Positions 2,212-17,012 of a stretch of DNA of 64,000 nt are shown here, one piece after another. Each line of letters starts with the position of its first letter. Position 1 is the stretch's first letter. This stretch comes from a bacterium. Lineage in GTDB: Bacteria > Electryoneota > Electryoneia > Electryoneales > Electryoneaceae. The stretch covers positions 114,791 to 178,790 of the forward strand of contig CAXXKJ010000001.1 in NCBI GenBank assembly GCA_963675295.2. The letters are read 5' to 3'. Below the pieces are notes generated by a model, which saw only the letters and a program-made list of their open reading frames with translations, was not told the origin of the DNA and searched no databases. The position numbers and the translations under genes were made by a program.

Positions 2212-2226
2212 TGGCCCGCTTTCTGC
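2212..2226 (+). promoter_or_regulatory. sigma-54 (-24/-12) promoter TGGCCCG-CTTT-CTGC
   Basis: Matches TGGCACG-N4-TTGC with correct GG-N10-GC spacing. Caveat: the -12 GC is only 13 nt before the ATG at 2239, implying a leaderless or very short-leader mRNA. Confidence 0.5.
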
Positions 2227-2238
2227 CCTGCATCAGGC

Positions 2239-2619
2239 ATGAAGGTGGCAATACCGCAATGGATGGGGCGAGTCTCCCCAGTGCTGGATGTGGCGAACCG
2301 GCTCGTGATCTGTGAACGGACCGAGCGTGGCGACATCATCCGGGAAGACATCCTGCTCGCGGACAACGATCCGTACACCCGCGCCGAAACGTTGCGTGCG
2401 CTGGGGATCACGGAGGTGGTCTGCGGAACCTTGTCGCGCGGTTTGCGGCGGGCGCTGCAGGCGGCCGGGATTGACATCTACCCGCATGTGCGGGGCGACA
2501 TCGAGCAGGTGGTGGACGCCTGTCTGAACGGATCCATCGCGAGTGACGACTTCCGCATGCCCGGCTGCGGGCATGGGCGGCGGCACGGCATGCGCCACCG
2601 TCGGGGACGACACCGGTAA
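2239..2619 (+). CDS. NifB/NifX/NafY-type (dinitrogenase FeMo-cofactor-binding fold) small protein
   Basis: N-terminus MKVAIPQ...RVSPVLDVA and length are typical of the family. The ORF-track start at 2197 is rejected in favour of MKVAIP. Confidence 0.75.
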   Translation: MKVAIPQWMGRVSPVLDVANRLVICERTERGDIIREDILLADNDPYTRAETLRALGITEVVCGTLSRGLRRALQAAGIDIYPHVRGDIEQVVDACLNGSIASDDFRMPGCGHGRRHGMRHRRGRHR

Positions 2620-2648
2620 CACAACAAGAAATACGAAGGAGCAGAACG

Positions 2649-3047
2649 ATGGCAAAGGGAAACAAGAAAGGCCCGTACAATCAGGGACCGATGACCGGCC
2701 GTGGAATGGGCTACTGCGCCGGTTTCCATGAACCGGGCTACATGAACCCCGGTTTCGGCGGTGGACGCGGCCGTGGGTTTGGTGGCGGCGGAGGCATGGG
2801 CTGGCGTCACGGTCAGGGCGGCGGCGGTGGACGTGGTCGCGGCTTTGGCTGGGGCGGCGGCATGGGACGCGGATTCCATCCCGGTATGGCAGTGCCGCCG
2901 TGGGCGGAACAGGGCTATCCGGGCTACGAGGACGAGGATGAACTCGAGTTCCTCAAAACGCAGGCGAAGTCGTACGAGAGCGACCTCAAGACGATTCGCA
3001 AGCGGATGGATTCGCTCGAACGCGACATGAAGCAGGACAAGGACTAA
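2649..3047 (+). CDS. DUF5320-type Gly/Arg-rich protein with C-terminal coiled coil
   Basis: GPMTGRGMGYCAGF motif, GGGRGRGFGGGGG tracts, and a C-terminal ELEFLKTQAKSYESDLKTIRKRMDSLE helix. Confidence 0.7.
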   Translation: MAKGNKKGPYNQGPMTGRGMGYCAGFHEPGYMNPGFGGGRGRGFGGGGGMGWRHGQGGGGGRGRGFGWGGGMGRGFHPGMAVPPWAEQGYPGYEDEDELEFLKTQAKSYESDLKTIRKRMDSLERDMKQDKD

Positions 3048-3087
3048 CCGCCGGACCGGTTCACACCGTTTCAGCGGAGGAGGCACT

Positions 3088-3519
3088 ATGAGCCCGCGAG
3101 GACGAGGATTCGGCCGAGGAATGGGCGGAGGAGGCCGTGGACACGGCGGGGGACGGGCACACCGTCTCCGGGATGGATCCTGCCGGGGTGGATCTGTCCT
3201 TTCACCGGGCAACGTGGAACGGAACGCCGCCGCGATCAAGGCGGCATCCACCGTCGCGCTACCGTTGCTGAAGCTGGCCGGACAAGCCTTGCTGCAGGCG
3301 ACGCGCGGCCTGCTGGAACGTGCGCGGCAACGCCCAGAAACCGCCCGGATTGAGACGACTGTTCGTTCGGCGAACCGTGAACTCGCGACACAGCAGGAAC
3401 CGGAGCAGATCGAGGTGATCGACGTGGAAGCGTTGCCTGTGGACGAGGACAACAAAGATGGCCGCTATCTGGATACGGCACCGCGGACATCTGTACGGGA
3501 TTCCGGTGCAACGGAGTGA
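3088..3519 (+). CDS. hypothetical RG-rich protein
   Basis: Strong RBS GGAGGAGG 6 nt upstream of the ATG. N-terminus PRGRGFGRGMGGGGRGHGGG followed by a helical region. No family recognised. Confidence 0.55.
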   Translation: MSPRGRGFGRGMGGGGRGHGGGRAHRLRDGSCRGGSVLSPGNVERNAAAIKAASTVALPLLKLAGQALLQATRGLLERARQRPETARIETTVRSANRELATQQEPEQIEVIDVEALPVDEDNKDGRYLDTAPRTSVRDSGATE

Positions 3520-3521
3520 GG

Positions 3522-3884
3522 ATGACCATGCGAATTGCATTCACAACATCCGGCGATTCGTTGCAGGCAGCATTCGAACCTCATGTCGCACGGGCGAGTC
3601 ACATCCTGCTGTACGACAGATCCAGTGGGATGTTCGAGGTCCTGCCGGGTTGCCAGCCCGCAAGCCGGGACCAGCAACCCGGGGTGCAGCTCGCGCACGC
3701 TTTGCAACGGATCGGCGTCGATACACTGGTGACCGGGCATGGTGACGCTCAAGACCTCCAACAGTTGAAGTCGGAAGGCATTGACGTTTGCGAACTGGAT
3801 GCGACAACCGTCGCGGATGCGTTCAACCAGTTCAACGCCTTGCACGCGAAAGCGCAAGGAACGGCGTCAGCTCCGCAACACTAA
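3522..3884 (+). CDS. NifB/NifX/NafY-type small protein
   Basis: M(T)MRIAFTTSGDSLQAAFEPHVARASHILLYD is a typical family N-terminus. The ATG lies 3 nt after the upstream stop; 3528 is an alternative start. Confidence 0.75.
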   Translation: MTMRIAFTTSGDSLQAAFEPHVARASHILLYDRSSGMFEVLPGCQPASRDQQPGVQLAHALQRIGVDTLVTGHGDAQDLQQLKSEGIDVCELDATTVADAFNQFNALHAKAQGTASAPQH

Positions 3885-3950
3885 TGTCGAGCCGCAGCCT
3901 TGTGAATCCGACTGGACCCGGACCTGTGCCGGGGTAAACCGAGGGGCAGC

Positions 3951-4394
3951 ATGACAAAGATCGCGGTCATCATCTGTGACCGGTACCGCAACTGCGGTGG
4001 GGGAAAGTGCTTCCGGGCGCTGCGGGAGCGGAAGGGCGGTTTTACACGCTATCCGGCGGATGAGGACGTCGAGATCGTCGGGTATTCCACCTGCGGCGGT
4101 TGTCCCGGCGGCAACATCGAGTATGTCCCCGCCGAGTTCAAGAAGAACGGCGCCGAGGTGGTGCATCTGGCGACCGGATTCGTGGTGGGGTACCCTCCGT
4201 GCCCGTACCTGGCCGGGTTCAAGACCTACATCGAGACGATTCATCACCTGCCGGTTGTGGTCGGGACGCACCCGATCCCGCTGAAATACCTGCAGGCACA
4301 TGAACAGCTTCCCTTCTGGAAAGATTCCGGCATGCGAGAGCTTGCGGGCGAGCTGATGGACGAGTCGGCAGATACGATGGAAGCCTACAACTGA
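3951..4394 (+). CDS. CGGC domain-containing protein
   Basis: MTKIAVIICDRYRNCGGGKC ... STCGGCPGGNIEY, the Cys pattern of the CGGC family. Confidence 0.8.
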   Translation: MTKIAVIICDRYRNCGGGKCFRALRERKGGFTRYPADEDVEIVGYSTCGGCPGGNIEYVPAEFKKNGAEVVHLATGFVVGYPPCPYLAGFKTYIETIHHLPVVVGTHPIPLKYLQAHEQLPFWKDSGMRELAGELMDESADTMEAYN

Positions 4395-4410
4395 TACGAG
4401 GACCAGCAAC

Positions 4411-4773
4411 GTGAAAATCGCGGTTACGACATCCGGTACCGATCTGAACGCTCCATTCGAAGCACGCTTCGGTCGTGCGGCCTGCTTTCTCATCTACGAT
4501 CTCGAGCAGTCGGCGTTTGAAATCATCGACAACCAGGCGAACGCGCAAGCCGCTCGTGGCGCGGGAATCCAGGCGGCGCAGTCGGTGTGCCAGCGTGGCG
4601 CTCAGGTGTTGTTGACCGGCCATTGCGGGCCGAAGGCGTGGGATGTACTTCAGGCGGCTGGGGTTGAGGTGTTCAACATCGAGGCGACCACGGTGGCGAA
4701 CGCGTTGGAACAGTACAACAACGGATCGCTTACGCCAGCCGGGGGCGCCAATGTCCAAGGACACTGGTCATGA
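4411..4773 (+). CDS. NifB/NifX/NafY-type small protein
   Basis: GTG start preceded by GAGGA. (M)KIAVTTSGTDLNAPFEARFGRAACFLIYDL. Confidence 0.8.
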   Translation: MKIAVTTSGTDLNAPFEARFGRAACFLIYDLEQSAFEIIDNQANAQAARGAGIQAAQSVCQRGAQVLLTGHCGPKAWDVLQAAGVEVFNIEATTVANALEQYNNGSLTPAGGANVQGHWS

Positions 4774-5297
4774 GCCAATCCCTCACCCTGCACCCGATCG
4801 GCGTCATCCGAAGCGTACACACCGAGCCGGAGAAGACACCGATCCAGCCGATGTTCGCGCAGGATTGCATCGGAACCGTCGTTGTGGACGAGAAATACCT
4901 CGACGCACTCGCCGATATCGACCGCTTCTCGCATCTTTACCTGATTTACTGGCTGCACAAGGCCGGACCGGTGAAGTTGAAGCTGAAGCCGTTCCTGAGT
5001 GACGACATTCGCGGGTTGTTCGCGACACGAGCACCGAGCCGCCCCAACCCGATCGGGATGAGCATCGTCGAGCTGATCAGCCGGGACGAAAACATCCTCG
5101 ATGTGCGCGGCGTGGACATCCTCGATGGGACCCCGTTGCTGGATATCAAGCCATACACCGAACGGTTTGACAATGTGCAGACCCGCCGCAACGGCTGGCA
5201 GGACAGGTTGGACGACGAAACCGCGGAACGGTTGGGAAGACGCAACTACCAGCCCGCTCCACCTGTACCCGAACATGAAAATAGACGGAAGGATTGA
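4770..5297 (+). CDS. TsaA/TrmO (YaeB, UPF0066) family SAM-dependent methyltransferase-fold protein
   Basis: HPIGVIRS..., RAPSRPNPIGMSIV, LDGTPLLDIKPY. ATGA start/stop overlap with the upstream gene. Confidence 0.85.
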   Translation: MSQSLTLHPIGVIRSVHTEPEKTPIQPMFAQDCIGTVVVDEKYLDALADIDRFSHLYLIYWLHKAGPVKLKLKPFLSDDIRGLFATRAPSRPNPIGMSIVELISRDENILDVRGVDILDGTPLLDIKPYTERFDNVQTRRNGWQDRLDDETAERLGRRNYQPAPPVPEHENRRKD

Positions 5298-5303
5298 CCC
5301 ACG

Positions 5304-6176
5304 ATGAAACTCGTGATCGCCAGCGGGAAAGGCGGCGCCGGTAAGACGATGGTCGCGACCAACCTGGCTTGGACTGCCGCGCAACAAGGCATCGACACGG
5401 CCTTTCTCGACTGCGATGTGGAAGAACCGAACGCCGCGCTGTTTCTCAAGCCGGAGATCGATAACGTTTTGCCGGTGCACGTACCGACGCCGGTGATCAA
5501 CCAGGACGCGTGTACGCACTGCGGGCTGTGTTCCGATATCTGCCGCTACAACGCGCTCGCCGTGCTCAGCGACAAGGTGCTGTTGTTCAACGAATTGTGC
5601 CACTCCTGCGGCGGATGCGTGCATGTCTGCCCGGAGCACGCGATCCACGAGGAACCGCGCCTTGTCGGACACATCGACGTTGGCCAGTCCGGCACGCTGA
5701 AGGTCCGTTCCGGTGTGCTCAAGGTGGGGGAGGCAATCGCTCCGCCGGTGGTGAAGGCGGTGAAACAGCAGGCTGGCGACGAAACCCTGACCATCCTCGA
5801 CTCCCCGCCCGGAACCGCCTGCCCGGCGGTGGAAACGGTGCGTGATGCCGACTTCGTGCTCTTCGTCGGCGAAGCGACACCGTTTGGACGGCACGATCTC
5901 GCGCTCGCGATCGACCTCGCGGAAGCGCTGAAACGACCGTTCGCCGTGATGCTGAACCGTGCCGATCTCGACCATGGCGAGACGAAACGCTGGTGCGAGG
6001 AGAAGGGATACAGCGTCCTTGCGGAAATCAACGAGGACCGGCGGATCGCTGAAACCTGCTCAAGCGGCGCGCTGGTCGTGGACACACTTCCCGACTACCA
6101 GGAGGTGTTCAGCAAACTGCTGGTGGATGTGAATGCGGCGGCGGGGATCACCACAAACGAACAGGTGCGCGGATGA
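5304..6176 (+). CDS. MinD/ParA/Mrp-type P-loop ATPase with inserted 2x[4Fe-4S] ferredoxin domain
   Basis: Deviant Walker A SGKGGAGKT. CTHCGLCSDIC and CHSCGGCVHVCP ferredoxin motifs. Confidence 0.85.
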   Translation: MKLVIASGKGGAGKTMVATNLAWTAAQQGIDTAFLDCDVEEPNAALFLKPEIDNVLPVHVPTPVINQDACTHCGLCSDICRYNALAVLSDKVLLFNELCHSCGGCVHVCPEHAIHEEPRLVGHIDVGQSGTLKVRSGVLKVGEAIAPPVVKAVKQQAGDETLTILDSPPGTACPAVETVRDADFVLFVGEATPFGRHDLALAIDLAEALKRPFAVMLNRADLDHGETKRWCEEKGYSVLAEINEDRRIAETCSSGALVVDTLPDYQEVFSKLLVDVNAAAGITTNEQVRG

Positions 6177-7072
6177 AACCGACGGAACTGGTTGTGATCA
6201 GCGGCAAGGGCGGAACCGGCAAAACGTCGCTGGTGGCGGCGTTCGCCACGCTGGCTGCTGAATGTGTCCTGGCGGATTGTGATGTGGACGCGTCCAACCT
6301 GCACCTGATCCACCACTCGGAGCTGGTGCTGCGCGAACCGTTCTCCGGACGCGTGCGTGCATCGATTGATCCGGATCGCTGCACCGACTGTGGCATCTGC
6401 GAAACCCTGTGCCGCTTCGACGCGATCCAGCCATCGGGTGGAAACGGATTCACGCCGGTTTTCCACCCGACGATCAACCCGCATCTGTGCGAGGGGTGCG
6501 GCGTGTGCGCGTGGTTCTGCCCGGAAAAGGCGATTGACCTCTACGACGGCGAGGACGGGCACGTGCTGCTGTCCAAAACCCGTTGCGGGCCGATGGCGCA
6601 CGCCCGGCTCGGCGTCGCCGGCGAAAATTCCGGTAAGCTGGTTGGCCTGGTCCGTGAACAGGCACGCGAGCTGGCCGTCATGCGCGAGCTGGACACCATC
6701 CTGATTGACGGGTCTCCCGGGATCGGCTGCCCGGTGATCGCGTCCCTGACCGGCGCGGACATGGCGCTGATCGTGACCGAGCCGAGCGTCAGCGGCGTGC
6801 ACGACATGAAGCGCATCGCCGAACTGGCCGCGGGTTTCGGCATTCCGACGCTGGTCGCCGTCAACCGCTGGGATGTCAACCCGCAGTTGACTGATGAGAT
6901 TGAATCGCTGGCGGTCAAACATGGCCTTGAGTTCGCGGGACGGGTTCGCTACGACACCGCGTTCAGCCGGGCGCAGCTCGAGGGCAAATCGGTGCTGGAT
7001 ATCGAAAGCAACGACCTCGCGGATGATATCAAGCAGGTGTGGTCGGTCGTGGAGGCGCGGCTCCACAATTGA
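6173..7072 (+). CDS. MinD/ParA/Mrp-type P-loop ATPase with inserted 2x[4Fe-4S] ferredoxin domain (paralog)
   Basis: SGKGGTGKT; CTDCGICETLC and CEGCGVCAWFCP. ATGA overlap with the upstream gene. Confidence 0.85.
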   Translation: MKPTELVVISGKGGTGKTSLVAAFATLAAECVLADCDVDASNLHLIHHSELVLREPFSGRVRASIDPDRCTDCGICETLCRFDAIQPSGGNGFTPVFHPTINPHLCEGCGVCAWFCPEKAIDLYDGEDGHVLLSKTRCGPMAHARLGVAGENSGKLVGLVREQARELAVMRELDTILIDGSPGIGCPVIASLTGADMALIVTEPSVSGVHDMKRIAELAAGFGIPTLVAVNRWDVNPQLTDEIESLAVKHGLEFAGRVRYDTAFSRAQLEGKSVLDIESNDLADDIKQVWSVVEARLHN

Positions 7073-7088
7073 CGGAGGAGCTTCAGCC

Positions 7089-8009
7089 ATGAAACATGTT
7101 TATGGGCCTGTGCCCTCTAGGCGGTTGGGCAGGTCACTGGGTATCGACCTGGTCCCATACAAAACATGCAGTTTCGACTGCATTTACTGCCAGTTGAAAC
7201 GTACGACTCTGCTGACGACTGAGCGCCGCGAATGGTATCCGCTGGACGACGTAGTGGAGGACGTTAAAAGCAGCCTGTCGCAAGAGTTCGATTACATCAC
7301 TCTGAGCGGGTCCGGCGATCCCACGCTCTACAGTCGGCTGGGAGAATTGATCGACCGGATTCATTCACTGACGGATCGTCCTGTCGCAGTGCTGACCAAC
7401 GGATCGCTGCTCTGGCGGGAGGATGTGCGGCAGGAGCTGAAGGAGGCTGACCTGTTGATCCCTTCGCTGGACGCCGGGGATGAAGAAACCTTCCAGTTGG
7501 TCAACCGGCCCACTGATGAGTTGAACCTGGGCTTGATCGTCGAGGGTTTGATCCAGACCCGGGAACAGTTCCGCGGCGAGCTGTGGCTCGAGATCATGTT
7601 GGTGAATGAATGGAACACGTCCGATGAGCAGGTCCAACGGATTGCCGACCAGATTCGTTGGATTCGACCGAACCACGTGCAGCTGAACACCGTGATCCGG
7701 CCTGCAACCGAAACGTATGCCGTGGCGGTCCCTCCCGGCCGTCTGGGGAAAATTGCGACTCACTTCTCAAACGCGGACGTGATCGCCGGGTTCTCCTCAG
7801 AAGAGCTGCAAGACGCAAAACTAATGTCCGGAACGGGTGAAGAATCGGTGATGGAAATGCTGATCCGGCGTCCGTGCACGTTGCAGGATTTGTCGGATGG
7901 ACTGCAATGCCACCCCAACGAGGCAGTCAAAGCACTGGACCGCTTGCAGGAAATGGGAAAGATCCGCACACGTGATGTGGATGACAAGATGTATTACCTG
8001 GCGTGCTGA
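7089..8009 (+). CDS. radical SAM protein
   Basis: MKHVYGPVPSRRLGRSLGIDL...CSFDCIYC (Cx3Cx2C). Start set at MKHVYG; the ORF-track start at 6894 overlaps the upstream gene. Confidence 0.85.
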   Translation: MKHVYGPVPSRRLGRSLGIDLVPYKTCSFDCIYCQLKRTTLLTTERREWYPLDDVVEDVKSSLSQEFDYITLSGSGDPTLYSRLGELIDRIHSLTDRPVAVLTNGSLLWREDVRQELKEADLLIPSLDAGDEETFQLVNRPTDELNLGLIVEGLIQTREQFRGELWLEIMLVNEWNTSDEQVQRIADQIRWIRPNHVQLNTVIRPATETYAVAVPPGRLGKIATHFSNADVIAGFSSEELQDAKLMSGTGEESVMEMLIRRPCTLQDLSDGLQCHPNEAVKALDRLQEMGKIRTRDVDDKMYYLAC

Positions 8010-8120
8010 ACCATTAAACAGTGTTGGGTTCGCATAGCCCGGATCAAGTTGAACAAGAACGAACCTGAGGTCACCCCTGACCCTCTCCAATGACACCTTG
8101 ATGCCCACTATAAGACCAAA

Positions 8121-8159
8121 CCGCCCGTGGCATGGACCTTCCCAGTCTGCCACGGGCGG
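8121..8159. terminator. 12-bp-stem hairpin between convergent genes (bidirectional terminator candidate)
   Basis: CCGCCCGTGGCA-N15-TGCCACGGGCGG followed by AATGATTTTG. Confidence 0.5.
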
Positions 8160-8188
8160 AATGATTTTGTCAGAATGGTTGGTTCGAA

Positions 8189-8539
8189 TCAGTCGAGGCC
8201 TTCCTTCTCAAACTGCTTCACAGCCTCATAGGCTTCGATGCCGTAAATCACGGACGGTCCGCCACCCATCAGAATCGCCACGCCGATCGTCTCAAGGATT
8301 TCCTCCCTGGATGCGCCGGCCTTGAGCGAATCGTGCACATGGAACGAGATACACCCGTTACAGCGAACGGTGATGGCGATGCTGAGCGCGATCAACTCCT
8401 TGGTTTTCTTGTCAAGCGCGCCTTTGCCGCCAGCCGCCTGATGAAGCTGGCCGAAGCCTTCCATTACGCCGGGCAGATCCTGATGCAGCCGCTTCATCAT
8501 CCCGACGGTGTGCTTGTAGGTCTCCGGATAGTTGTGCAT
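8189..8539 (-). CDS. carboxymuconolactone decarboxylase / AhpD-like family protein
   Basis: LDKKTKELIALSIAITVRCNGCISFHV (CxxC AhpD-like motif). 116 aa. Confidence 0.85.
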   Translation of the reverse strand: MHNYPETYKHTVGMMKRLHQDLPGVMEGFGQLHQAAGGKGALDKKTKELIALSIAITVRCNGCISFHVHDSLKAGASREEILETIGVAILMGGGPSVIYGIEAYEAVKQFEKEGLD

Positions 8540-8607: not shown

Positions 8608-10587
8608 CTACCTTGTGAACTCCTGCACATACACCATCTGTTCCGAGGAAAGCTTCGTTTCCTCTCGGAGGAGGGTCGGCGTCATCTCATGGCACGTGGT
8701 GCAGCGATCCAGCTCGGGACGGTTCTGCGACAATGCGTTTTTCGTGTGGCACGGGATGCACGTGTTGTGCATCGCGCTATGGTACGAGGTCGCCGCAAAC
8801 TGCGCCAGCCTGCCGGCCGCTGGTTCCACCGCGTGCATGTCTTCACGATGGCATTCCATGCACGCCTTCGCGGATGCGACCGAGCGTGCCTGCCCACTGT
8901 GGCATTCGACACAGGACTGGTTTTCCGGTATCCAGCCGCCCAGTTGCTTGTCGTCCGCGACCCACGCCAGGTGCTGCTCGTGGTTGAAGATCACCGTTTC
9001 CGTCTCCATCGCACGGTGACACTCGGAACACGGCGTCGCACGGTCGGCGGGCATGGAAAGGTGATGGCAGTTGACGCACGATTCCTCGCCACCCAACCGC
9101 TGCTTGTGTGCGGCGTGGGCGAAGACGGCGTCCAGACCGTCACGGTTGGCGTCGATACGAAGCGTATCCCGCGCCACATCCACCGCCAGCGGCGGACGTG
9201 TGTCCGGCGGAGTGGAACTGTGGAACGGTGGGTACAGCGCGATCCACGCCAGCGGCAATACGAGCAACGCAATCAGCGAGGCACGTTCAAGGCCGGTCAT
9301 CAGCCGGTGATTCCAGGCCCAGGTCAGCCGGTCGAACGAGGAGCTGAATTTCAGCTCGGAATCGGCGAGGCGTTTCCAACGCTCGTCAAACACACTGAAG
9401 TTTTCGATGATGAAGAAAAACGCCAGCCCGGCCATGGCGAGCACGCCGAACGTAATCACCCACTCAATCGCGGAGGGGAAGTAGGCTTCGCCGGCGTCAC
9501 GGAAGTAGCCGAAAATGCCGACATCGACACGGTTCAGCGCCAATCCGAACGCCGCCAGCCCGGCGGTGACCGCCAGGGCGTATGGCGAGCGGCGCACCGG
9601 CTTGAACAGCACGAGCAGCACCGGCAAAATCGCAGCCGCCAACAGTTCGACGACGTACAGCACGCTCTCCCACGTACCCGCCAGCAATGCCTGCCGTGCT
9701 TCCGGACGCAAGACGAGATCACCGATCTTCAGCAGCAGGTAAACACTCAGCACCCATGCGCCGGCCTTGACCAGCGCCCGCACCACGTGCAGGTCCGGTC
9801 CCTCCGGCGTGGCACCGTTTTCCGATTCTCCGCCGCAGGTCTTGCAGACGACGCCCTCACGAACCATCGTCCCGCCAAACACACGGCTCGGATCGTACCA
9901 CCACGAGTGCAGCGTCTTGATCAATGCCAGCAGCATCAGCCCGCCACCAATCGCCGAGATGATGAACAGCAGGGAGATGATCGGGCTGTACCACAATGCG
10001 TGCAGCCGCTGCGGCGTCACCAGGAACAACGATCCCAGCGAGGTGTGGTGCAGGCTGGAGAGGGTGATGCCGATGATGACGAACACGCCCGCCGCCTTGC
10101 TCAGCACGCCGCGCAGTTTCGCCAGCCCCAGCCGCTCGAGCAGCGTCGGGCTGAGTTCGAGGAAGGTGATCACGAAGTAGCAGGAGACACACCAGAAGAC
10201 CTCGAACAGGAACGAATGGATGTTCCAGTAGACAAACGGATGCCAGAAACGCCACGGCAGCCCGATGTCAAACAGCAACGCGAACAACGACGCGCCGTAG
10301 CCTAAAAACGCCACCAGGATCGCCGGTTTCACCATCCGGTCGAATGGTTTCAGGTGCAGTACATGGCCGAGGAAGCCGACGGTAAACCCGCAGGTCGCCA
10401 ACGCCGCGCCGCCAATCATGTTGAAGATCTTCCACAGTCCCCACGGGACACGGTCATCGAGGTTTGTCGTCACGCCCAGCCCGAACACGAACCGCAGCAG
10501 CATCGCCACCAGTCCGGCAAATGTCAGCGCCCAGAGGATGTCCTTGATCCGTCGCGTCCGGTCGGTTGTCAGTTCCAGCTCACTCAT
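8608..10587 (-). CDS. NrfD/PsrC/HmcC/DsrP-like integral membrane subunit fused to a C-terminal hexaheme cytochrome c3-like domain
   Basis: About 460 aa of polytopic membrane sequence typical of the NrfD family. The last ~190 aa carry six CxxCH motifs: CVNCH, CSECH, CVECH, CMECH, CIPCH, CTTCH. Confidence 0.85.
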   Translation of the reverse strand: MSELELTTDRTRRIKDILWALTFAGLVAMLLRFVFGLGVTTNLDDRVPWGLWKIFNMIGGAALATCGFTVGFLGHVLHLKPFDRMVKPAILVAFLGYGASLFALLFDIGLPWRFWHPFVYWNIHSFLFEVFWCVSCYFVITFLELSPTLLERLGLAKLRGVLSKAAGVFVIIGITLSSLHHTSLGSLFLVTPQRLHALWYSPIISLLFIISAIGGGLMLLALIKTLHSWWYDPSRVFGGTMVREGVVCKTCGGESENGATPEGPDLHVVRALVKAGAWVLSVYLLLKIGDLVLRPEARQALLAGTWESVLYVVELLAAAILPVLLVLFKPVRRSPYALAVTAGLAAFGLALNRVDVGIFGYFRDAGEAYFPSAIEWVITFGVLAMAGLAFFFIIENFSVFDERWKRLADSELKFSSSFDRLTWAWNHRLMTGLERASLIALLVLPLAWIALYPPFHSSTPPDTRPPLAVDVARDTLRIDANRDGLDAVFAHAAHKQRLGGEESCVNCHHLSMPADRATPCSECHRAMETETVIFNHEQHLAWVADDKQLGGWIPENQSCVECHSGQARSVASAKACMECHREDMHAVEPAAGRLAQFAATSYHSAMHNTCIPCHTKNALSQNRPELDRCTTCHEMTPTLLREETKLSSEQMVYVQEFTR

Positions 10588-11363
10588 TGTTCGCCACCCC
10601 CGTGCCCGTTGGTTGACGCGTCCGGTCCATGCATCTGCTGCATCCGCCGCCGCACGATCCAGTTCACTCCGGCCACGCTGGCGAGCACGCTACCGCCGAC
10701 AATCGGCGTCGCGTGCATCACCGGTTCGACCAGGTGCGGAATCGACCCGGTATCCGGGGAGGGCCAGCCCAGTTCGGCGAGGTCGGTGTTCGCGATGTAG
10801 AGCACGCCCGTACCGCCGAATTCATGCTCGCCCCAGACGTGGTCGATGTACCCGTTCGGATTCTCACCGATCCGCTGGTGCGCGAGACGCAGCAACTTCT
10901 CTCGCTCGCCAAACTCGATCGCGTTCTGCGGGCAGGCCTCCGCGCAGGCCGGGATTTCGCCCTCCGCGAGACGTTCCTCGCACAACTCGCATTTCTTCAT
11001 GAACGGCACCGTCGCCGACCACTCGTAGCGCGGTACGTGAAACGGGCACGCCAGCATGCAGTAACGGCAGCCGATGCACTTGTCAGGATCGTAGACCACC
11101 GCACCATTTTCGCTGCGGGTGATGCCGCCAACCAGGCACGCGCTGACGCAACTCGGCTCGAGGCAGTGCATGCACGCCTTCTTCGCGAACTGGTCCCAGC
11201 CAACCGGCTGCACCGTCGTCAACCGGTCCGCTGAAAGCCCGTCCGGGGTGGTCGCACGGTCACGGTCGGCGGCTGCCGGGTCGCAGCCGTTGGCCTTCAC
11301 GCAGGCCGCGACACATTTCTCGCAGCCGACGCATTTCGTCACATCAATCAGCATCCCGATCAT
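10584..11363 (-). CDS. 4x[4Fe-4S] ferredoxin-type subunit (HmcB/DsrO/NrfC-like) with C-terminal TM helix
   Basis: CVGCEKCVAAC, CMHCLEPSCVSAC, CIGCRYCMLACP, CELCEE...CAEACP. No N-terminal Tat or Sec signal is visible. Hydrophobic C-terminal segment IVGGSVLASVAGVNWIV. Confidence 0.85.
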   Translation of the reverse strand: MIGMLIDVTKCVGCEKCVAACVKANGCDPAAADRDRATTPDGLSADRLTTVQPVGWDQFAKKACMHCLEPSCVSACLVGGITRSENGAVVYDPDKCIGCRYCMLACPFHVPRYEWSATVPFMKKCELCEERLAEGEIPACAEACPQNAIEFGEREKLLRLAHQRIGENPNGYIDHVWGEHEFGGTGVLYIANTDLAELGWPSPDTGSIPHLVEPVMHATPIVGGSVLASVAGVNWIVRRRMQQMHGPDASTNGHGGGEQ

Positions 11364-12064
11364 ACCTTCGCCTCCTTGCCGAGCACCGTCTCCGCGACAC
11401 GATCGCCCGCGCCCGGACGCAACTGCCAGTGAATCTCCGAGATGCGGTCAAAGAAGATCAGCACGATGTGGCTCAGCTTGGTGAACGGCACCAGGATCAA
11501 CAACGCTTCCGCGCTGAGCAGGTGGATGAGGAACATCGTCTGCCACGGCAATGGATTAAACGCCGGATGCGCCGCGAGGAAGCCGCTGATGAACGGCAGC
11601 AGGATCAACACCAGCAGGCTGACGTCCGAATTGCGGCTGATCGCACGCAGGCGTGGCACCGCGATCCGGCTGACCAACAGCACCAGCACCGCAAGGATCG
11701 TGATCACGGTGAGCACATCCGCAAATCCGTTCCCGATCGACCACAGGTTGATCCCGAGCCACTGTTCCCAGAGCACGATGTGGCCGGCGTAAAACAGCGG
11801 CACGAGGATCGCACCGATGTGGAACACGAATGATGCGTTGGAGAAAGTCACGTTGCCCGATGTCAGGTGACGGACCGGCAGCGCCCACTCCAGCGAGTCG
11901 TGCAGCATCTTGTTCCACGGCATGTATTTGAGCCGGCTGCGTTTGCGCCGGAACAACGTGTCCAGTTGCAGCACCAGGTGCCGCAGCAGCCCGAGTGCCA
12001 TCACGCCCAGCGACAAGGCGAACAACGGCCCCATCGCGAAATCGATCCAGGCTTGCATTCCCAT
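11360..12064 (-). CDS. NarI/DsrM/HmcE-like membrane cytochrome b subunit
   Basis: About 5 TM helices with conserved His residues, layout of the nitrate reductase gamma family. Overlaps neighbours by 4 nt. Confidence 0.75.
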   Translation of the reverse strand: MGMQAWIDFAMGPLFALSLGVMALGLLRHLVLQLDTLFRRKRSRLKYMPWNKMLHDSLEWALPVRHLTSGNVTFSNASFVFHIGAILVPLFYAGHIVLWEQWLGINLWSIGNGFADVLTVITILAVLVLLVSRIAVPRLRAISRNSDVSLLVLILLPFISGFLAAHPAFNPLPWQTMFLIHLLSAEALLILVPFTKLSHIVLIFFDRISEIHWQLRPGAGDRVAETVLGKEAKV

Positions 12065-12071
12065 CCTCCAC

Positions 12072-13514
12072 TCACATGGCGTACAGTTCCGCCTCTTCCT
12101 TGCGTTCCTCCGCCGACTTGCCGCCGGGGATCTCGATCGCCTTCAGGATCAGGTCGTGCAGGCCCATCACCTCGCACGGGATCTCGTAAAACTCGACCAG
12201 TTCCTTGAGCTGCTTCTTGCAATTGGCGCAAGGGGCGATGCAGATCTGCGCGCCGGTCGCGACGATCTGGTCGGCCTTTGTCTTGCCGCCGACCTTCATC
12301 CGGAAGTCGTGGATCTCGTCAATCGACACCAGCCCGCCACCACCGCCACAGCAGTAATTGTTGCGGCCTCCCGGTGTCATCTCGACATAGTCCTTGACGA
12401 ACGACTTGAGGATTTCGCGGGGCTGGTTCACAATCCAGCCGCCACGCGCCATGTTGCACGGGTCGTGGTAGGTCACTTTCTCGGTGATGATGTCCGGGTT
12501 CAGCTTGATCTTGCCCCGGCGCAAACAATCCAGCGTGTATTCGATGAAGCTGACTACCGGACGGGTCTGTGCACCGCCGAAGACTGGCACGAAATCATGC
12601 GCCGACCGCGAGGCGTGCCCGCATTCGCCGATCAGGATGTTCTTCCCGTTCAATCGGTCGACTTCACCGACGAGCTGCTTGATGATCCGTTCGAGATGCC
12701 AGTCGCTGTAGAACAGGCCGTAGTTGATGCCGTCGAAATTGCCGGTGCCGATGGTCCAGCGATCCCAGTCGCCGGCGGCGTGCAACACCGCGAGGTTGCC
12801 GAGCAACGTGTCCGGCTCCATCAGGTAGTCGCTGACCGCGCAGAAGAAGACGTAATCCCGGTTCTTCTTGTCCACCGGCACGTCCAGATCGATGCCGAAC
12901 TGGTCGGAGAATTCCTCTTGCAGGAATTCGAGCGTGTGCAGCATCGCCGTCGCCGGAACCTTGGACGTGTTGTGCGTTTCACCTTCCAATTGTTCCCGCA
13001 CACTTACTTGCAGCGCCTTCGGTGCAATCCCCGTGAGGCTCAGGATATAGCGTCCGAGACGAGTGATCAGGCCGTGATCCATCCCCATTGGACATTCGAG
13101 TGTGCAACGGCGGCAGGCGGTGCAACGGTAGAACACCTCCGCCATCTCCGCGATGACCTCTTCCGTCAGCTCGAACCGGTTCGGCGTGAACCGTGCATTG
13201 AGCCATCCGCCGAGCGTGAAGTACCGCTGGTAAATCGAAAGCAGCAGCGTCGTCTTGTAGCACGGCACATCGCGCGGGTCGCCGGTCACCTGGTACACCG
13301 GACAAGTCACCGAACAGCGGTTGCACTTGTTCGTCGTGCGGCAGTACGAATCGAGCAGCGGCTTGTAGTCCGTGTGCTCGAGCACCGCCGCGAACGCATC
13401 GAGGAAACGTTCCACCCTTCCCCCCGAACCGTTGCCCTCGATGTGGTACGGCAGGCGGGCTTTCAGGTCGATCTCGGCTGACGTAGCCAGGCCGCCGTTC
13501 GTTGTTTCAGCCAT
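12072..13514 (-). CDS. HdrD/DsrK/HmcF-like (Fe-S)-binding CCG-domain oxidoreductase
   Basis: CNRCSVTCP, CTACRRCTLECP, NYCCGGGGG, CANCKKQ. Start set at MAETT (13514), preceded by GGAG; the ORF extends to 13526. Confidence 0.85.
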   Translation of the reverse strand: MAETTNGGLATSAEIDLKARLPYHIEGNGSGGRVERFLDAFAAVLEHTDYKPLLDSYCRTTNKCNRCSVTCPVYQVTGDPRDVPCYKTTLLLSIYQRYFTLGGWLNARFTPNRFELTEEVIAEMAEVFYRCTACRRCTLECPMGMDHGLITRLGRYILSLTGIAPKALQVSVREQLEGETHNTSKVPATAMLHTLEFLQEEFSDQFGIDLDVPVDKKNRDYVFFCAVSDYLMEPDTLLGNLAVLHAAGDWDRWTIGTGNFDGINYGLFYSDWHLERIIKQLVGEVDRLNGKNILIGECGHASRSAHDFVPVFGGAQTRPVVSFIEYTLDCLRRGKIKLNPDIITEKVTYHDPCNMARGGWIVNQPREILKSFVKDYVEMTPGGRNNYCCGGGGGLVSIDEIHDFRMKVGGKTKADQIVATGAQICIAPCANCKKQLKELVEFYEIPCEVMGLHDLILKAIEIPGGKSAEERKEEAELYAM

Positions 13515-13556
13515 GCAGAACTCCATTGGGTTGCAGTGTTGTCGCTGCCGGTGTCA

Positions 13557-13571
13557 GCAAAGGGCGGGCCG
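13557..13571 (-). promoter_or_regulatory. sigma-54 promoter candidate (minus strand CGGCCCG-CCCT-TTGC)
   Basis: Reverse complement of 13557-13571 fits GG-N10-GC with a TTGC -12 element, about 30-45 nt upstream of the HdrD-like start. Confidence 0.45.
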
Positions 13572-13721
13572 AACAAGAAGAGGCGGGCAAATCCGGCTGG
13601 AAAACGAGGCCGCTGTAACTCGTGTCACCGCTGCGAATTCACCAGCGGGGAGAGGCCGAGGTACCTGCGCCGCACGTGGTACGATTTCGCATTCCTGATT
13701 TTCCGTTTTTGCGCGAAAAGT

Positions 13722-13786
13722 GTTGCAGGCGTTGCAGCGAAACGTTGTGTTGCAACGACTCCTGCTACAGCTGCGACACTTGCAAC
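13722..13786. promoter_or_regulatory. cluster of four (G/C)TTGCA(G/A) boxes including the palindrome GTTGCAAC; candidate shared enhancer site
   Basis: GTTGCAG at 13722 and 13731, GTTGCAAC at 13749, CTTGCAAC at 13779. Located midway between the two divergent sigma-54 promoters. Confidence 0.3.
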
Positions 13787-13930
13787 TCACGACCCGGGCA
13801 CCTGACCGGAGACCGTCTTACACACGACGGAAGATTCACGTAACTCCCGTGCCTCAACCGCTCCGCGTGATTTCGTCCTGCTCATTCCGTCATCAAGGGG
13901 GGTACCGTTACGCGACGCTGATCCCTATCC

Positions 13931-13944
13931 GGCACAACGCTTGC
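13931..13944 (+). promoter_or_regulatory. sigma-54 (-24/-12) promoter GGCAC-AACGC-TTGC
   Basis: Near-consensus match. GGAGG RBS at 13964-13968 and ATG at 13975. Confidence 0.6.
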
Positions 13945-13974
13945 CGTTTGCTGCGATGAAACCGGAGGCGATCC

Positions 13975-15027
13975 ATGCGTATTTGTGTACCCCTGTTTGG
14001 CGATCGAGTGGCACCGCGTTGCACACACGCGGATAGCGTGCTGCTCTGTACGCTGAAACGCGGACGCATCGTTGAACAGGAACGGATCCGGCGCAGCATC
14101 GACAGCCTGCTCGACCTCGAGGATGTTCTCCGCAACCGCAAGGTCGACACGCTGGTCTGTGGCGGCATCAACCAGCATGACCGCTCCACCGTCGATCCAC
14201 TGCTGGAAGCGGTGGTGTCGAACGTCGCGGGCACGGTTGAGGACGTATTGCTCGGGGTGTCGTCCGGTCGGATCGGTCTGGACGAGGCGAACGGTGCAAC
14301 GCCGGAGACAGCAACGGTTGCAACACCGGCGAAACCGCAGCCCAAGCCCGCAGCTGGGAATCCGTCGATGACCGACTGCCTCACCTGCGACACCATGACG
14401 TGCCTCGAGGGCAAGGGATGTGTGCTGCAGGCGTCCGGCATTCTGCTCGGTGACCGCGACGACCGCATCATGCTCGAGGTCGCGCGCGATTTGAACTGCG
14501 AGGACGAACGACGCCTCTGCAGGCTGTCCGAGCTGATCTACTTCGGCCTCGAGATGGGCTACCGCACCGTCGGCATCGCCTACTGTAGCGATTTGTACCA
14601 GCCGGCGCGGGTGCTGGCGGGCGTGTTCAAGCGTTTCTTCGAGGTGCATGCCGTCTGTTGCAAGCTGCACGTCCCGAGCAACGGCCACACGTTCAACGCC
14701 GACATGCCGGACCCGTCCACCCGCTGCAACCCTCTCGCACAGGCTGAATTGCTGAACAAACTGGGCACCGACATGAATGTGATCGTCGGACTCTGCGTTG
14801 GCGCGGACTGCGTCTTCACCCACGCCAGCGACGCTCCGGTGACCACCCTGTTCGCCAAGGATCGCGCGCTCGCGAACAACCCCATCGGCGCGGTCTATTC
14901 GGAACGATATCTGCGCGAAGCGGCACAAACCCTGGCCGCCCCAAAAACCGATATCCGCAACCACCAGATAAGCGTCGAGCGTGAATCCATGGAACACGCC
15001 GGCGACACAGGAAGGGCAGACTCATGA
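13975..15027 (+). CDS. fusion protein: N-terminal NifX-like domain + Pro/Ala linker + C-terminal DUF1847 (Cys-rich metal-binding) domain
   Basis: MRICVPLFGDRVAPRCTHA... (NifX-like). C-terminal CNPLAQAELLNKLGTDMNVIVGLCVGADCVFTHASDAPVTTLFAKDRALANNP is the DUF1847 signature as I recall it. Confidence 0.75.
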   Translation: MRICVPLFGDRVAPRCTHADSVLLCTLKRGRIVEQERIRRSIDSLLDLEDVLRNRKVDTLVCGGINQHDRSTVDPLLEAVVSNVAGTVEDVLLGVSSGRIGLDEANGATPETATVATPAKPQPKPAAGNPSMTDCLTCDTMTCLEGKGCVLQASGILLGDRDDRIMLEVARDLNCEDERRLCRLSELIYFGLEMGYRTVGIAYCSDLYQPARVLAGVFKRFFEVHAVCCKLHVPSNGHTFNADMPDPSTRCNPLAQAELLNKLGTDMNVIVGLCVGADCVFTHASDAPVTTLFAKDRALANNPIGAVYSERYLREAAQTLAAPKTDIRNHQISVERESMEHAGDTGRADS

Positions 15028-15581
15028 CGATGGTGTCGATGAAGTCCATCGGGCTATGCGCCAACTATTCGGAAGCGGGAGACTGGGCGTTCGACTTCGC
15101 CCTCGGGCTCGCACGCAAGCACAACCTGCAGCTGAACATCTTCCACTTTCTCGCGGACCCGTTCGACCCCTCCGCCGATTCCCCGATGGCGATGCCGAAG
15201 GATCAACGGGACGCGATGTCGATCGAGATGGAACGCAATCTGCGCTTCTACTACGACGAACGTCTCGGCGATCACCTTAAGGCCGGATTCCGCGTCTGCG
15301 AAAGCAATGAGTGGACCGAGCTGCATCACTGCCTGATGCGCCGTGAATTTGAGCTGCTGGTGCTGCCGTACCCAAAGCGGAACGCCACCTTCGGCGGCAA
15401 GCCAATTGAAGATTTCGCGAAGAATTTCGTGTCGCCGGTGGCACTGGTCGGACCGGACACTCCCGACCAGATCCGGCTGAACAACCAGGCCGGCCTGGCG
15501 AACAAAATCGCCGATTTCGTCGGCGCGCAAGAGATCCTGGCGACGGCGCTTGCGCTGATCATGATGGCAGGCAGCATTTGA
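15024..15581 (+). CDS. universal stress protein (UspA)-like protein
   Basis: ATGA overlap with the upstream gene. USP-like alpha/beta layout (LQLNIFHF..., ELLVLPY...). Weak assignment. Confidence 0.6.
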   Translation: MTMVSMKSIGLCANYSEAGDWAFDFALGLARKHNLQLNIFHFLADPFDPSADSPMAMPKDQRDAMSIEMERNLRFYYDERLGDHLKAGFRVCESNEWTELHHCLMRREFELLVLPYPKRNATFGGKPIEDFAKNFVSPVALVGPDTPDQIRLNNQAGLANKIADFVGAQEILATALALIMMAGSI

Positions 15582-15704: not shown

Positions 15705-17012
15705 ATGGACGAAAGCCTCAGCAAAATCATTTTCGAAAGCATCCGTGACGGCGTGTTCACGGTCAACAAGCACTGCATCATCACCTCGTTCAACAAGGCT
15801 GCCGAAAGCATCACCGGCTTCAGCAGCGACGAGGCGATTGGCCGTCATTGTTTCGACGTTTTCCGCACCGAAGTGTGCCACAAGCGCTGCGCGCTGAAGG
15901 ACACACTGAAGAGCCAGGAAGCGGTCGAAAATGTGCGCGTCACGATCATCACCAAGGACGGCTGCGAGGTTCCGATCACCGTCTCGACCACCCTGCTGCG
16001 CGACCGCAAAGAAAACGTGATCGGTGCGGTGGAGTTCTTCCAGGACCTGTCCACGATCGAAAACCTGCGCAATCGCGTCCATCATGCCACCACGCTGGAC
16101 AATATCGTCAGTGTCAACGCACGCATGCAGGAATTGATCCACCTGCTGCCGGACGTTGCCACCGCCGAATGCAACGTGCTGATCGAAGGCCCGAGCGGGT
16201 CCGGCAAGGAGCTGTTCGCGCAGGCGATCCATTCGCTCAGCCCACGTAAGTACGGATCGTACATCCGCATCAACTGCGGTGCGCTGCCTGCAACGTTGCT
16301 CGAATCCGAACTGTTCGGCTACGAAAAAGGCGCGTTCACCGACGCCAAGCGCGACAAGCCGGGCATGTTCTGCCTCGCCAACGGCGGCACGCTGCTGCTC
16401 GATGAAATCGGTGAAATGGACGTGCAGCTGCAATCCAAGCTGCTGCGCGTGCTGAACAACGGCGAGTATCGTCCGCTCGGTTCCACCCGCACCATGCGCA
16501 CCGACGCCCGCATCATCGCCTCAACCAACATCGACCTGCAGGCAGCCATCGAACGGCGTGAGTTCCGCCAGGATCTCTACTTCCGTCTGAATGTCGTCAA
16601 CATCCACATTCCGCCGCTGTCCGACCGTCCCGAGGACATTCCGCTGCTGGTCGACTACTTCATCCGCAAGGTGAAGAAAAAGATCCGCAAGCCGATCGAA
16701 TCGGTGTCGCCCGACGTTTTGGCGCAACTGCGGCGCTACGACTTCCCCGGTAACGTTCGCGAACTGGAAAACGCGATCGAACACGCGTTCGTGATGTGCC
16801 ACGGCAGCGTGATCCAACCGAACCATCTGCCCGGCCACATCATGAATAACGTCAACGCCGACATCACCCGCCATCCGCACCCGAGGCACGAGAAGGACGA
16901 GATCGTCGAAGCGCTCAGCCGTCACCACGGCAACCGTACCCAGGCCGCACGCGACCTCGGCATGCACCGTACCACGCTGTGGCGCAAGCTCGTCGCCTAC
17001 CACCTCGACTGA
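15705..17012 (+). CDS. sigma-54-dependent transcriptional activator (PAS sensor + AAA+ + Fis-type HTH), paralog of 676-2058
   Basis: GPSGSGKELFAQAIH, GAFTDA, ESELFGY, C-terminal AARDLGMHRTTLWRKL. The PAS domain has the same C-x8-C-x3-C motif. Confidence 0.9.
   Translation: MDESLSKIIFESIRDGVFTVNKHCIITSFNKAAESITGFSSDEAIGRHCFDVFRTEVCHKRCALKDTLKSQEAVENVRVTIITKDGCEVPITVSTTLLRDRKENVIGAVEFFQDLSTIENLRNRVHHATTLDNIVSVNARMQELIHLLPDVATAECNVLIEGPSGSGKELFAQAIHSLSPRKYGSYIRINCGALPATLLESELFGYEKGAFTDAKRDKPGMFCLANGGTLLLDEIGEMDVQLQSKLLRVLNNGEYRPLGSTRTMRTDARIIASTNIDLQAAIERREFRQDLYFRLNVVNIHIPPLSDRPEDIPLLVDYFIRKVKKKIRKPIESVSPDVLAQLRRYDFPGNVRELENAIEHAFVMCHGSVIQPNHLPGHIMNNVNADITRHPHPRHEKDEIVEALSRHHGNRTQAARDLGMHRTTLWRKLVAYHLD

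Follow-up and report, generated by a model that had tools for sequence, protein, structure and literature searches.

What might a bacterium do with a membrane redox complex in which a quinone-handling subunit of the NrfD kind and a multihaem cytochrome c are one and the same polypeptide? The question is raised by four minus-strand genes at 8608–13526 of a 64,000-nucleotide stretch of DNA, referred to here as the window, from a member of the Electryoneaceae (assembly GCA_963675295.2, contig CAXXKJ010000001.1, positions 114,791 to 178,790 of the forward strand). Coordinates without a label are positions in the window; other loci carry the letter L and a number, and contigs of the genome are labelled C1 and C2. 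The answer favoured here, to which we give a probability of roughly 0.6, is that the complex is a compact, four-polypeptide form of the membrane-spanning electron transfer for which Hmc, Tmc and DsrMKJOP are the models, and that it feeds a cytoplasmic thiol/disulfide reaction of the DsrC type under reducing conditions.

A sequence-only reading had described the genes as overlapping or abutting, had named their types, and had put the products in the Hmc/Tmc/Dsr superfamily. The open reading frames (ORFs) of the window and the Pfam and NCBIfam matches agree with the first two points, and profile and fold searches agree with the third for all four subunits, though none is a strict equivalog. Packing is tight, with a 7-nucleotide gap between the CCG and cytochrome b genes and 4-nucleotide ATGA overlaps at the two remaining junctions. 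From the first gene to the last, with the last divided into its parts, the features are:

12072 to 13526, minus strand: HdrD/DsrK/HmcF-like CCG iron-sulfur protein, predicted cytoplasmic, 484 residues, Pfam CCG and Fer4_8
11360 to 12064, minus strand: NarI/HmcE/TmcC-like cytochrome b, 234 residues, five membrane helices predicted from hydropathy
10584 to 11363, minus strand: four-cluster ferredoxin resembling HmcB, HybA and FdnH, 259 residues, Fer4_11, with a C-terminal helix and then RRR
9400 to 10587, minus strand: NrfD/HmcC/HybB-like ten-helix membrane domain, residues 1–396 of a 659-residue fusion protein, Pfam NrfD
9223 to 9294, minus strand: eleventh membrane helix, residues 432–455, placed by hydropathy, loop charges and a model helix at residues 432–451
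8611 to 9180, minus strand: six-haem class III (c3/Hmc-type) cytochrome c domain, residues 470–659, predicted periplasmic; the stop codon is at 8608–8610

The CCG protein, the predicted catalytic subunit, is always first in the operon and is the best-conserved member of the group, with 66–84% identity between phyla. It has the features of HdrD/DsrK-type CCG proteins: a Pfam CCG match of 42.2 bits (cut-off 20.6) together with Fer4_8, a complete CXnCCGXmCXXC motif in which C357, C392, C393, C433 and C436 are kept, and conserved cluster cysteines C68/C71/C75 and C135/C138/C141/C145. Its highest NCBIfam score is with DsrK, 275 bits, followed by HmcF with 220 and TmcB with 200, every one of these being under its cut-off (400, 750 and 735). 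Translation may begin at a second ATG at 13514, which has GGAG 6 nucleotides upstream and would give a protein of 480 residues, instead of at 13526. The cytochrome b (Pfam Nitrate_red_gam) scores 147 bits with TmcC (cut-off 240), 128 with HmcE (275) and only 15 with DsrM (300), and judging from two histidine pairs kept in 73 sequences, H82/H95 and H181/H199, it is of the two-haem type.

The whole fusion gene spans 8608–10587. Pfam places NrfD (PF03916, 46.8 bits, cut-off 25.8) at residues 42–223 of its product and class III cytochrome c (PF02085, 42.5 bits, cut-off 22.9) at residues 486–580 and 603–644 (Cytochrom_CIII, Cytochrom_c3_2). A cofactor-free membrane subunit of 8–10 helices in two four-helix bundles, with a gene for a four-cluster ferredoxin next to its own, is what characterizes the NrfD/PsrC family, quinone binding being a prediction only, and several CxxCH haems each provided with a second conserved histidine are what characterize class III cytochromes c. 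NCBIfam scores are 225 bits for HmcC (cut-off 550) and 205 for HybB, with no preference for ActC. Among structures the best Foldseek match is ActC of alternative complex III (TM-score 0.62–0.65), then ActF and PsrC; a fold search was needed to reach these relatives, as phmmer with the fusion against PDB sequences returned no NrfD-type chain. The haem domain matches nine-haem cytochrome c and HmcA weakly. A tail of about 190 residues with six CxxCH motifs and c3-like F.H..H spacing had been claimed, and the motifs are indeed there, at residues 504, 520, 559, 576, 610 and 629. In an alignment of 30 sequences, with 47–93% identity, all six are invariant, and so are six further histidines, H491, H494, H509, H536, H539 and H607, four of which lie in the likewise invariant patterns F489/H491/H494 and F534/H536/H539. 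Six is just what is required if each haem is to have two histidine ligands, as is the case in cytochromes c3.

That a cytochrome is covalently joined to the NrfD-type subunit is a property not of this one assembly but of a family. At least 599 relatives of the fusion are present in the protein collection (counted as protein clusters), and the best 120 are 626–709 residues long, cover 94–99% of the query and, all but three, have both Pfam domains. A scan in which each species was represented by a single genome found a relative encoded in at least 172; those listed are all metagenome-assembled and come from Gemmatimonadota, Ignavibacteria, Acidobacteriota, Zixibacteria, LCP-89, Fibrobacteraceae, Polyangia and unclassified bacteria. 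In public records the protein goes under the names polysulfide reductase NrfD or Ni/Fe-hydrogenase HybB-like protein.

On which side of the membrane would the haems be? Eleven helices are seen by hydropathy and in an AlphaFold model whose haem domain is of low confidence, and in a hand count based on those helices there are 27 lysines and arginines on loops predicted to be inside and 8 on loops predicted to be outside. ActC has both its termini in the cytoplasm, and pentahaem ActA is anchored through an N-terminal helix of its own (PMC5928083). Because of the helix and charge pattern together with the cytoplasmic termini of ActC, the fusion reads as a ten-helix NrfD core, then a linker in the cytoplasm that includes an amphipathic helix, and then helix 11 acting as the signal-anchor of the cytochrome, which would place the haem domain in the periplasm. 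Invariant residues number about 36 in periplasmic loops versus about 7 in cytoplasmic loops, a distribution in keeping with a periplasmic position of both quinone site and redox partner.

Are the four genes the whole of the system? The sequence-only reading had treated them, with an AhpD-like gene following, as the unit, and in this it needs correction, for the conserved unit is seven genes and the AhpD-like gene is not one of them. Among 82 loci examined, 80, from at least eight phylum-level groups, have one gene order throughout: a sigma-54 activator, a Usp-like gene and a NifX-DUF1847 gene on one strand, and on the other the CCG, cytochrome b, ferredoxin and NrfD-cytochrome genes. Members that are missing from some of the loci are explained by contig ends. 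The three plus-strand genes of the window that complete the module are:

13975 to 15027, plus strand: NifX/orange-protein-fold domain fused to a cysteine-rich DUF1847 domain, 350 residues, Pfam DUF1847; first gene of the divergent operon
15024 to 15581, plus strand: Usp-like protein, 185 residues, weak Pfam Usp match (E 0.0056), C-terminal helix at residues 165–183
15705 to 17012, plus strand: OrpR-type sigma-54 activator, with a PAS domain carrying a cysteine triad, AAA+ and HTH_8; Sigma54_activat 216 bits

The NifX-DUF1847 gene is present in the same orientation in 65 of the 82 loci. Its N-terminal domain, modelled by AlphaFold with pLDDT >90, matches PH0822, TM1816 and the orange protein of D. 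gigas (2WFB). The DUF1847 domain has 10 cysteines invariant in 24 sequences, a fold search with it gave no convincing structural match, and no literature on DUF1847 was found. The Usp-like gene is conserved in 62 of the 82, with C12, C92, H101 and C103 conserved in its product; no confident family match was obtained for this protein, whose C-terminal hydrophobic helix ends 2 residues before the stop, and it may be tail-anchored.

What the third protein senses is suggested by a close parallel. OrpR of Desulfovibrio vulgaris requires three cysteines and an acidic residue for its redox-sensing [4Fe-4S] PAS domain (PMC8359166). The triad C49-x8-C58-x3-C62 of the window's activator, with D51, has the spacing of OrpR C52/C61/C65 and D/E54, so that by sequence it has all that would define an OrpR-type activator: the triad, an acidic residue two after the first cysteine, AAA+ and HTH. 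Of 56 activators linked to the module, 53 have the triad; the other three are ORF calls that extend too far. The window has a further OrpR-type activator with the same triad at 676–2121 on the minus strand; including one at the L084 locus described below, there are three in the genome.

The divergent arrangement has a counterpart in its promoters, for which the elements in the window are:

13556 to 13571, minus strand: sigma-54 type −24/−12 element CGGCCCGCCCTTTGCT, its GC dinucleotide 31 nucleotides before the ATG of the CCG gene at 13526
13930 to 13945, plus strand: sigma-54 type −24/−12 element CGGCACAACGCTTGCC, its GC dinucleotide 31 nucleotides before the start of the NifX-DUF1847 gene
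13718 to 13790, no strand assigned: TTGCA/TGCAA boxes and inverted repeats (I1–I3, I6), midway between the two promoters, a candidate activator-binding region

An earlier suggestion of sigma-54 control is strengthened by boxes conserved in position on both strands in a set of 57 loci, by the adjacent activator and by the presence of rpoN in the genome. A GG-N10-GC element, mostly TGGTAY-N5-TTGC, lies 46–170 nucleotides upstream of the CCG gene match in about 45 of the 57, and YGGCAY-N5-TTGC lies 39–65 nucleotides upstream of the NifX-DUF1847 gene in 50. In comparative scoring the latter reached at least 19 of 22 in 75% of cases versus 6% of background segments. A strict search of the window for TGGCAC-N5-TTGCW, one mismatch being allowed, found only a chance site inside a gene, the real boxes having two mismatches. 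Between the promoters are TTGCA-N4-TTGCA and the palindrome GTTGCAAC, and TTGCA-N6-TTGCA is present in the same intergenic region of L002, L010, L039 and L074. It is possible that 13718–13790 is an activator site, of a kind unlike the published OrpR site.

With what company in the genome does the module occur? The genome (4.8 Mb in 2 contigs, estimated to be 93% complete) has a dsr locus at C2:1133725–1146626 (L083:3726–16627) with dsrA, dsrB, a gene for a DsrL-like NAD(P)-binding Fe-S flavoprotein, dsrC and a dsrN-like amidase gene, continuing with a gene for a TPR protein, a 194-residue ORF and then dsrM, K, J, O and P. DsrA, DsrB, DsrC and the five DsrMKJOP subunits all exceed their equivalog cut-offs, the true DsrK, DsrM, DsrJ, DsrO and DsrP scoring 716, 487, 154, 296 and 450 bits; aprA and sat are at C2:4336250–4340017. 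A gene content of this kind suggests a complete sulfate reducer or a sulfur disproportionator. Since a complete true dsrMKJOP is carried, the window complex is an addition to DsrMKJOP and not a replacement for it. It was correctly said at the outset that no dsrAB, aprAB or sat is among the ORFs of the window. The physiological partner was then left wholly open, and while it is true that the window does not fix it, the presence in the genome of dsrAB, dsrC, dsrMKJOP, aprA and sat, and a distribution that tracks dsrA, leave it considerably less so; the genome search that had been proposed for a DsrC-like carrier finds dsrC itself. Elsewhere in the genome, at C2:4437118–4444855 and C2:2804042–2808876, are clusters of ORFs of 532–1185 residues that match class III cytochrome c several times over and presumably encode large multihaem cytochromes.

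A second, diverged complex is encoded at C2:4126146–4131216, with neighbours to 4133684 (L084:7146–14684, minus strand). It too is accompanied by an OrpR-type activator and by a NifX-like protein, here of 269 residues, and its CCG protein, cytochrome b and signal-less ferredoxin are respectively 53%, 36% and 48% identical to those of the window; its NrfD protein, 36% identical, is likewise fused to six haems. Next to it on the same strand are genes for a histidine kinase and a response regulator, and this L084 type is the commoner of the two in the phylum.

The association with dsrA is seen from both directions. It is present in 49 of 50 genomes picked solely for having the module (47 above cut-off, two split by contig or frame breaks), and, in a Gemmatimonadota sample where only 6 of 151 genomes (4%) have dsrA, the module is in 2, both of them dsrA-positive. 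Among 79 genomes of the organism's own phylum the orthologue is in 16 of the 37 with dsrA versus none of the 42 without it, and for any NrfD-cytochrome fusion the figures are 31 of 37 versus 2 of 42. The two exceptions, the only ones in the phylum, are G202 and G275 (96% and 77% complete), each with a fusion of the second type. An orange-protein (ORP) ATPase is encoded in 28 of the 79, including 7 that are dsrA-negative and lack the orthologue; thus the orthologue occurs where dsr and ORP genes coincide.

How might electrons then travel? From periplasmic donors or the menaquinone pool they would pass by way of the haems, the Fe-S clusters, the quinone site of NrfD and the cytochrome b to the CCG subunit, which would reduce a disulfide or trisulfide in the cytoplasm, DsrC being its likeliest carrier, and the organism would then have an electron route additional to its true DsrMKJOP. 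Two things make DsrC the first choice as substrate: the CCG protein is nearest to DsrK, and the module follows dsrA. The six-haem domain would be at the periplasm on helix 11 of the NrfD-type quinone-handling subunit, and the ferredoxin domain would be periplasmic also, having got there with neither a Tat (twin-arginine translocation) signal nor an encoded Tat partner. Because the activator is an OrpR-type sensor, expression at low redox potential only would be expected, the OrpR-like Fe-S PAS sensor then being the switch.

Is this simply one of the known complexes under another name? Membership was judged by NCBIfam equivalog cut-offs, subunit by subunit. For Hmc, besides the shortfalls of HmcC, HmcE and HmcF given above, HmcB (NF045715) scores 224 bits where 420 is needed, and the ferredoxin has the 16 cysteines and the tail helix with no signal peptide; there is no separate 16-haem cytochrome gene (HmcA, NF045713, 27.8 bits against 400), and no small membrane ORF that could be HmcD is present in the operon. 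For DsrMKJOP, DsrJ at 17.5 bits is far from 100 and DsrO at 97 from 200, and DsrP gives no match. Tmc is departed from in having an NrfD subunit and a ferredoxin at all. Alternative complex III is represented by an ActC-like fold only, with no ActB molybdopterin-like domain, ActD, ActE or ActF in the operon.

The likenesses and differences are instructive. Two subunits have their top NCBIfam match in Hmc of Desulfovibrio vulgaris, namely HmcB and HmcC; for the other two, HmcE comes after TmcC, and HmcF after DsrK. However, the window complex has six haems instead of sixteen, fused to the C-terminus of the NrfD protein through an added helix; it lacks HmcD, has the order F-E-B-C(A), has a signal-less ferredoxin, is linked to an OrpR-type activator and NifX-DUF1847, and is found in Gemmatimonadota, Ignavibacteria, Acidobacteriota, Zixibacteria and others. 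DsrMKJOP is the DsrC-trisulfide reductase complex (PMC10861901). With it are shared five functional modules of like kinds, a CCG protein scoring best against DsrK and a distribution following dsrAB, but the six haems are of c3 type where DsrJ has three, the cytochrome b is of HmcE/TmcC type, and the ferredoxin is of HmcB/HybA type and without a signal where DsrO has a twin-arginine one. Common to the divergent OrpR-controlled orp operons of D. vulgaris Hildenborough and to the module are two divergent sigma-54 operons, an activator with a C-x8-C-x3-C PAS domain and genes of NifX/ORP fold (PMC8359166), yet the D. vulgaris regulon consists of two orp operons only, with no membrane redox complex (PMC8359166), and its site is GGGCGYRTTTTGCGCCC where the boxes here are TTGCA. 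By its fusion, missing signal, gene order and regulatory and ORP-type neighbours the complex is, on sequence grounds, distinct from Hmc, Tmc and Dsr. No published description of the module was found in the papers searched on NrfD fusions, Hmc in these phyla or NrfCD modules.

A number of points count against electron delivery to DsrC. The genome already has a complete DsrMKJOP, and as no subunit reaches the cut-off of any Hmc, Tmc or Dsr subunit, a substrate is not transferable by orthology. The dsrA association does repeat in unrelated phyla; even so its P values are overstated, kin not being independent, and the link is at the level of the genome only, no dsr gene being within 8 kb of the module at any of the 82 loci. 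The strictly conserved neighbours are ORP-type and not sulfur proteins, and since, in the own phylum, an ORP ATPase accompanies the orthologue in 15 of 16 genomes, there is room for an ORP-related substrate. Then there is the ferredoxin, without a Tat signal while DsrO of the same genome has one, and with no Tat partner in the module.

It is with that ferredoxin that the most serious of the alternatives begins. Its best NCBIfam matches are HmcB, aligned only from profile position 38 so that the signal part is absent, and HybA at 209 bits, and the nearest solved structure is FdnH (1KQF_B). It has 16 conserved cysteines and begins 10 residues ahead of the first cysteine motif; an in-frame stop is 29 codons upstream, with nothing signal-like in the stretch between. 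The observation that it has neither a Tat nor a general secretory (Sec) signal and yet has a C-terminal helix was sound, and extends to the family: at 81 of 81 loci the start is about 10 residues before the first cysteine motif, leaving no room for a signal peptide, and the helix is present in all 81. The longer open frames of high-GC genomes run, in a different frame, into the cytochrome b gene, and the conserved start is found inside them. Read-through or frameshifting that would join the ferredoxin to cytochrome b was considered and rejected, as the gap or overlap varies among loci, and also because the domain would then land in the cytoplasm.

Could the ferredoxin be cytoplasmic, wiring cytochrome b to the CCG subunit in the manner of NarH, with the six-haem domain standing in for the usual Fe-S partner on the periplasmic side of NrfD? 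We consider this rather unlikely, though it deserves to be taken seriously. It would make sense of a conserved seven-gene module with neither a Tat signal nor a Tat partner in a genome that has tatC and whose DsrO retains a clear twin-arginine signal. The Fer4_11 family includes cytoplasmic members, NarH for one; the tail helix is weakly hydrophobic (1.3–1.9 on the Kyte-Doolittle scale); and the conserved periplasmic NrfD loops would suit docking of a haem domain equally well. Opposed to it is the positive-inside rule. Lysines and arginines average 4.3 after the helix and 0.9 before it, there being more after than before in 79 of 81 loci, and tails of 17–50 residues would be hard to translocate. 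From the charge pattern the tail should be cytoplasmic and the Fe-S domain periplasmic, as is the case in the proteins most closely related to it, HmcB, HybA and FdnH, which share its tail anchor. DsrK-type proteins, moreover, contact cytochrome b directly.

There is in addition a precedent: a signal-less, tail-anchored HybA/HmcB-like ferredoxin with an adjacent NrfD/HybB-like protein has been described, export together with a partner being the route proposed for it (bioRxiv 10.1101/2023.11.02.564894). The C-tail is kept, the signal peptide is absent and an NrfD-type gene is adjacent in that case as here, but there the genes are directly downstream of one for a periplasmic [FeFe] hydrogenase, so that an export partner is at hand, whereas none of the seven module proteins has a Tat signal. 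Taken together, the ferredoxin domain is probably on the periplasmic side. As an export partner the organism's [NiFe] hydrogenase was considered and set aside, being 35 kb off and with an NrfD-type gene of its own. At C1:78092–83195 the genome has its one gene for a [NiFe] hydrogenase large subunit and, about 3 kb from it in the same orientation, an unfused NrfD-type gene; the hydrogenase is probably a Hyb-type periplasmic enzyme with its own membrane anchor.

If DsrC is not the substrate, what is? The main rival to it is NifX-DUF1847 or the ORP system: the complex would then serve ORP metal-sulfur chemistry, the CCG protein reducing NifX-DUF1847 or an ORP-bound cluster with membrane-driven reductant under OrpR-type control. 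To this we would give a minority share of our confidence, and regard it as unlikely. Its attraction lies in the neighbours, since NifX-DUF1847, with its NifX/ORP-fold N-terminal domain, the Usp-like gene and the OrpR-type activator are fixtures wherever the flank suffices. ORP-type genes adjoin the module in the window and in about 15 of the 82 loci, the second paralogue is likewise beside a NifX-like gene and an OrpR-type activator, and the ORP ATPase count for orthologue-bearing genomes given above points in the same direction. But the seven dsrA-negative genomes that have the ATPase and not the orthologue indicate that ORP alone is no predictor, while dsrA nearly always accompanies the module. 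To our knowledge the DsrK-clade CCG proteins whose substrate is known all act on DsrC. The role of ORP itself, moreover, is still to be established (PMC8359166).

Considerably less probable is a complex that works mainly as a quinol:periplasmic-acceptor oxidoreductase, with the cytochrome b and CCG protein as a side branch, along the lines of alternative complex III or of NrfCD-cytochrome modules to which a part in metal reduction has been ascribed. Alternative complex III is the quinol:cytochrome c oxidoreductase of aerobic or phototrophic chains. ActC subunits are the best structural matches to the fusion, and in that complex a ten-helix NrfD-type subunit, a periplasmic four-cluster domain and a multihaem cytochrome held by a single helix are likewise combined (PMC5928083). 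NrfCD-multihaem modules have been proposed as quinol oxidases in MBNT15 and Melioribacter (PMC9386147). On the other hand, ActA is a separate polypeptide, the Fe-S domain of that complex is fused to a Tat-exported molybdopterin-like domain, and neither a cytochrome b nor a CCG protein is present there; profile scores favour HmcC and HybB over ActC, the other Act components are missing from the operon, and distribution follows dsrA. The CCG subunit, besides, is the most conserved of the module and its gene always the first of the operon.

That the fusion is an assembly or frameshift artefact joining two separate genes is untenable, because independent assemblies from many phyla (172 species genomes) encode it, and the near-uniform length of its relatives, the conservation of the linker helix and of all six haem motifs, and the identical architecture of a diverged paralogue in the same genome say the same.

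What remains of the locus lies downstream of the fusion gene, where one more feature was claimed:

8189 to 8539, minus strand: AhpD/CMD-like CxxC protein, Pfam CMD and TIGR00778, 68 nucleotides downstream of the fusion gene

Position and family are as claimed. As part of the system it was rejected, such a gene being near the module in 2 of 82 loci only and absent here in a 94%-identical relative; it is a local addition. In that relative, MAG87, the radical SAM and AhpD-like genes (7092–8539 in the window) are both missing (L003:9941–10145) and a MinD gene comes about 200 nucleotides after the fusion gene, a difference that looks like a recent local insertion or deletion. Beyond, on the plus strand at 2197–8009, is an ORP-type operon with genes for three NifX-like proteins, DUF5320, CGGC and TrmO-like proteins, two MinD-ferredoxin ATPases and a radical SAM protein.

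What follows for the organisms that have the module? Dissimilatory sulfur metabolism is now attributed, from genome surveys, to many uncultured lineages of soils and sediments, and energy conservation in them has been deduced from Desulfovibrio-type complexes that are mostly missing there. A complex found in at least 172 species genomes, its type occurring in 31 of the 37 dsrA-positive genomes of its own phylum, is a strong candidate for the missing membrane link. New here are the seven-gene unit, its OrpR-type switch, the conserved promoter pair, topology statistics for the whole family, the two paralogues beside a true DsrMKJOP and a quantified association with both dsrA and ORP genes. Two puzzles are brought into the open: how a cofactor-loaded ferredoxin without a Tat signal reaches its topology, and how the orange-protein system, long studied with no function assigned to it, stands to membrane electron transfer. 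A larger proposal is as yet doubtful and is offered with due reserve. It is that the module may be an unrecognised core part of dissimilatory sulfite/sulfate reduction in the non-classical dsrAB lineages (Gemmatimonadota, Ignavibacteria, Acidobacteriota, Zixibacteria and its own phylum), one that would couple the orange-protein system to DsrC chemistry under an Fe-S switch, and that would at the same time break a rule of the NrfD family, either with a folded four-cluster ferredoxin that gets to the periplasm with neither a Tat signal nor an encoded Tat partner, or with a ferredoxin that stays inside and a fused cytochrome that replaces the Fe-S partner at the quinone site.

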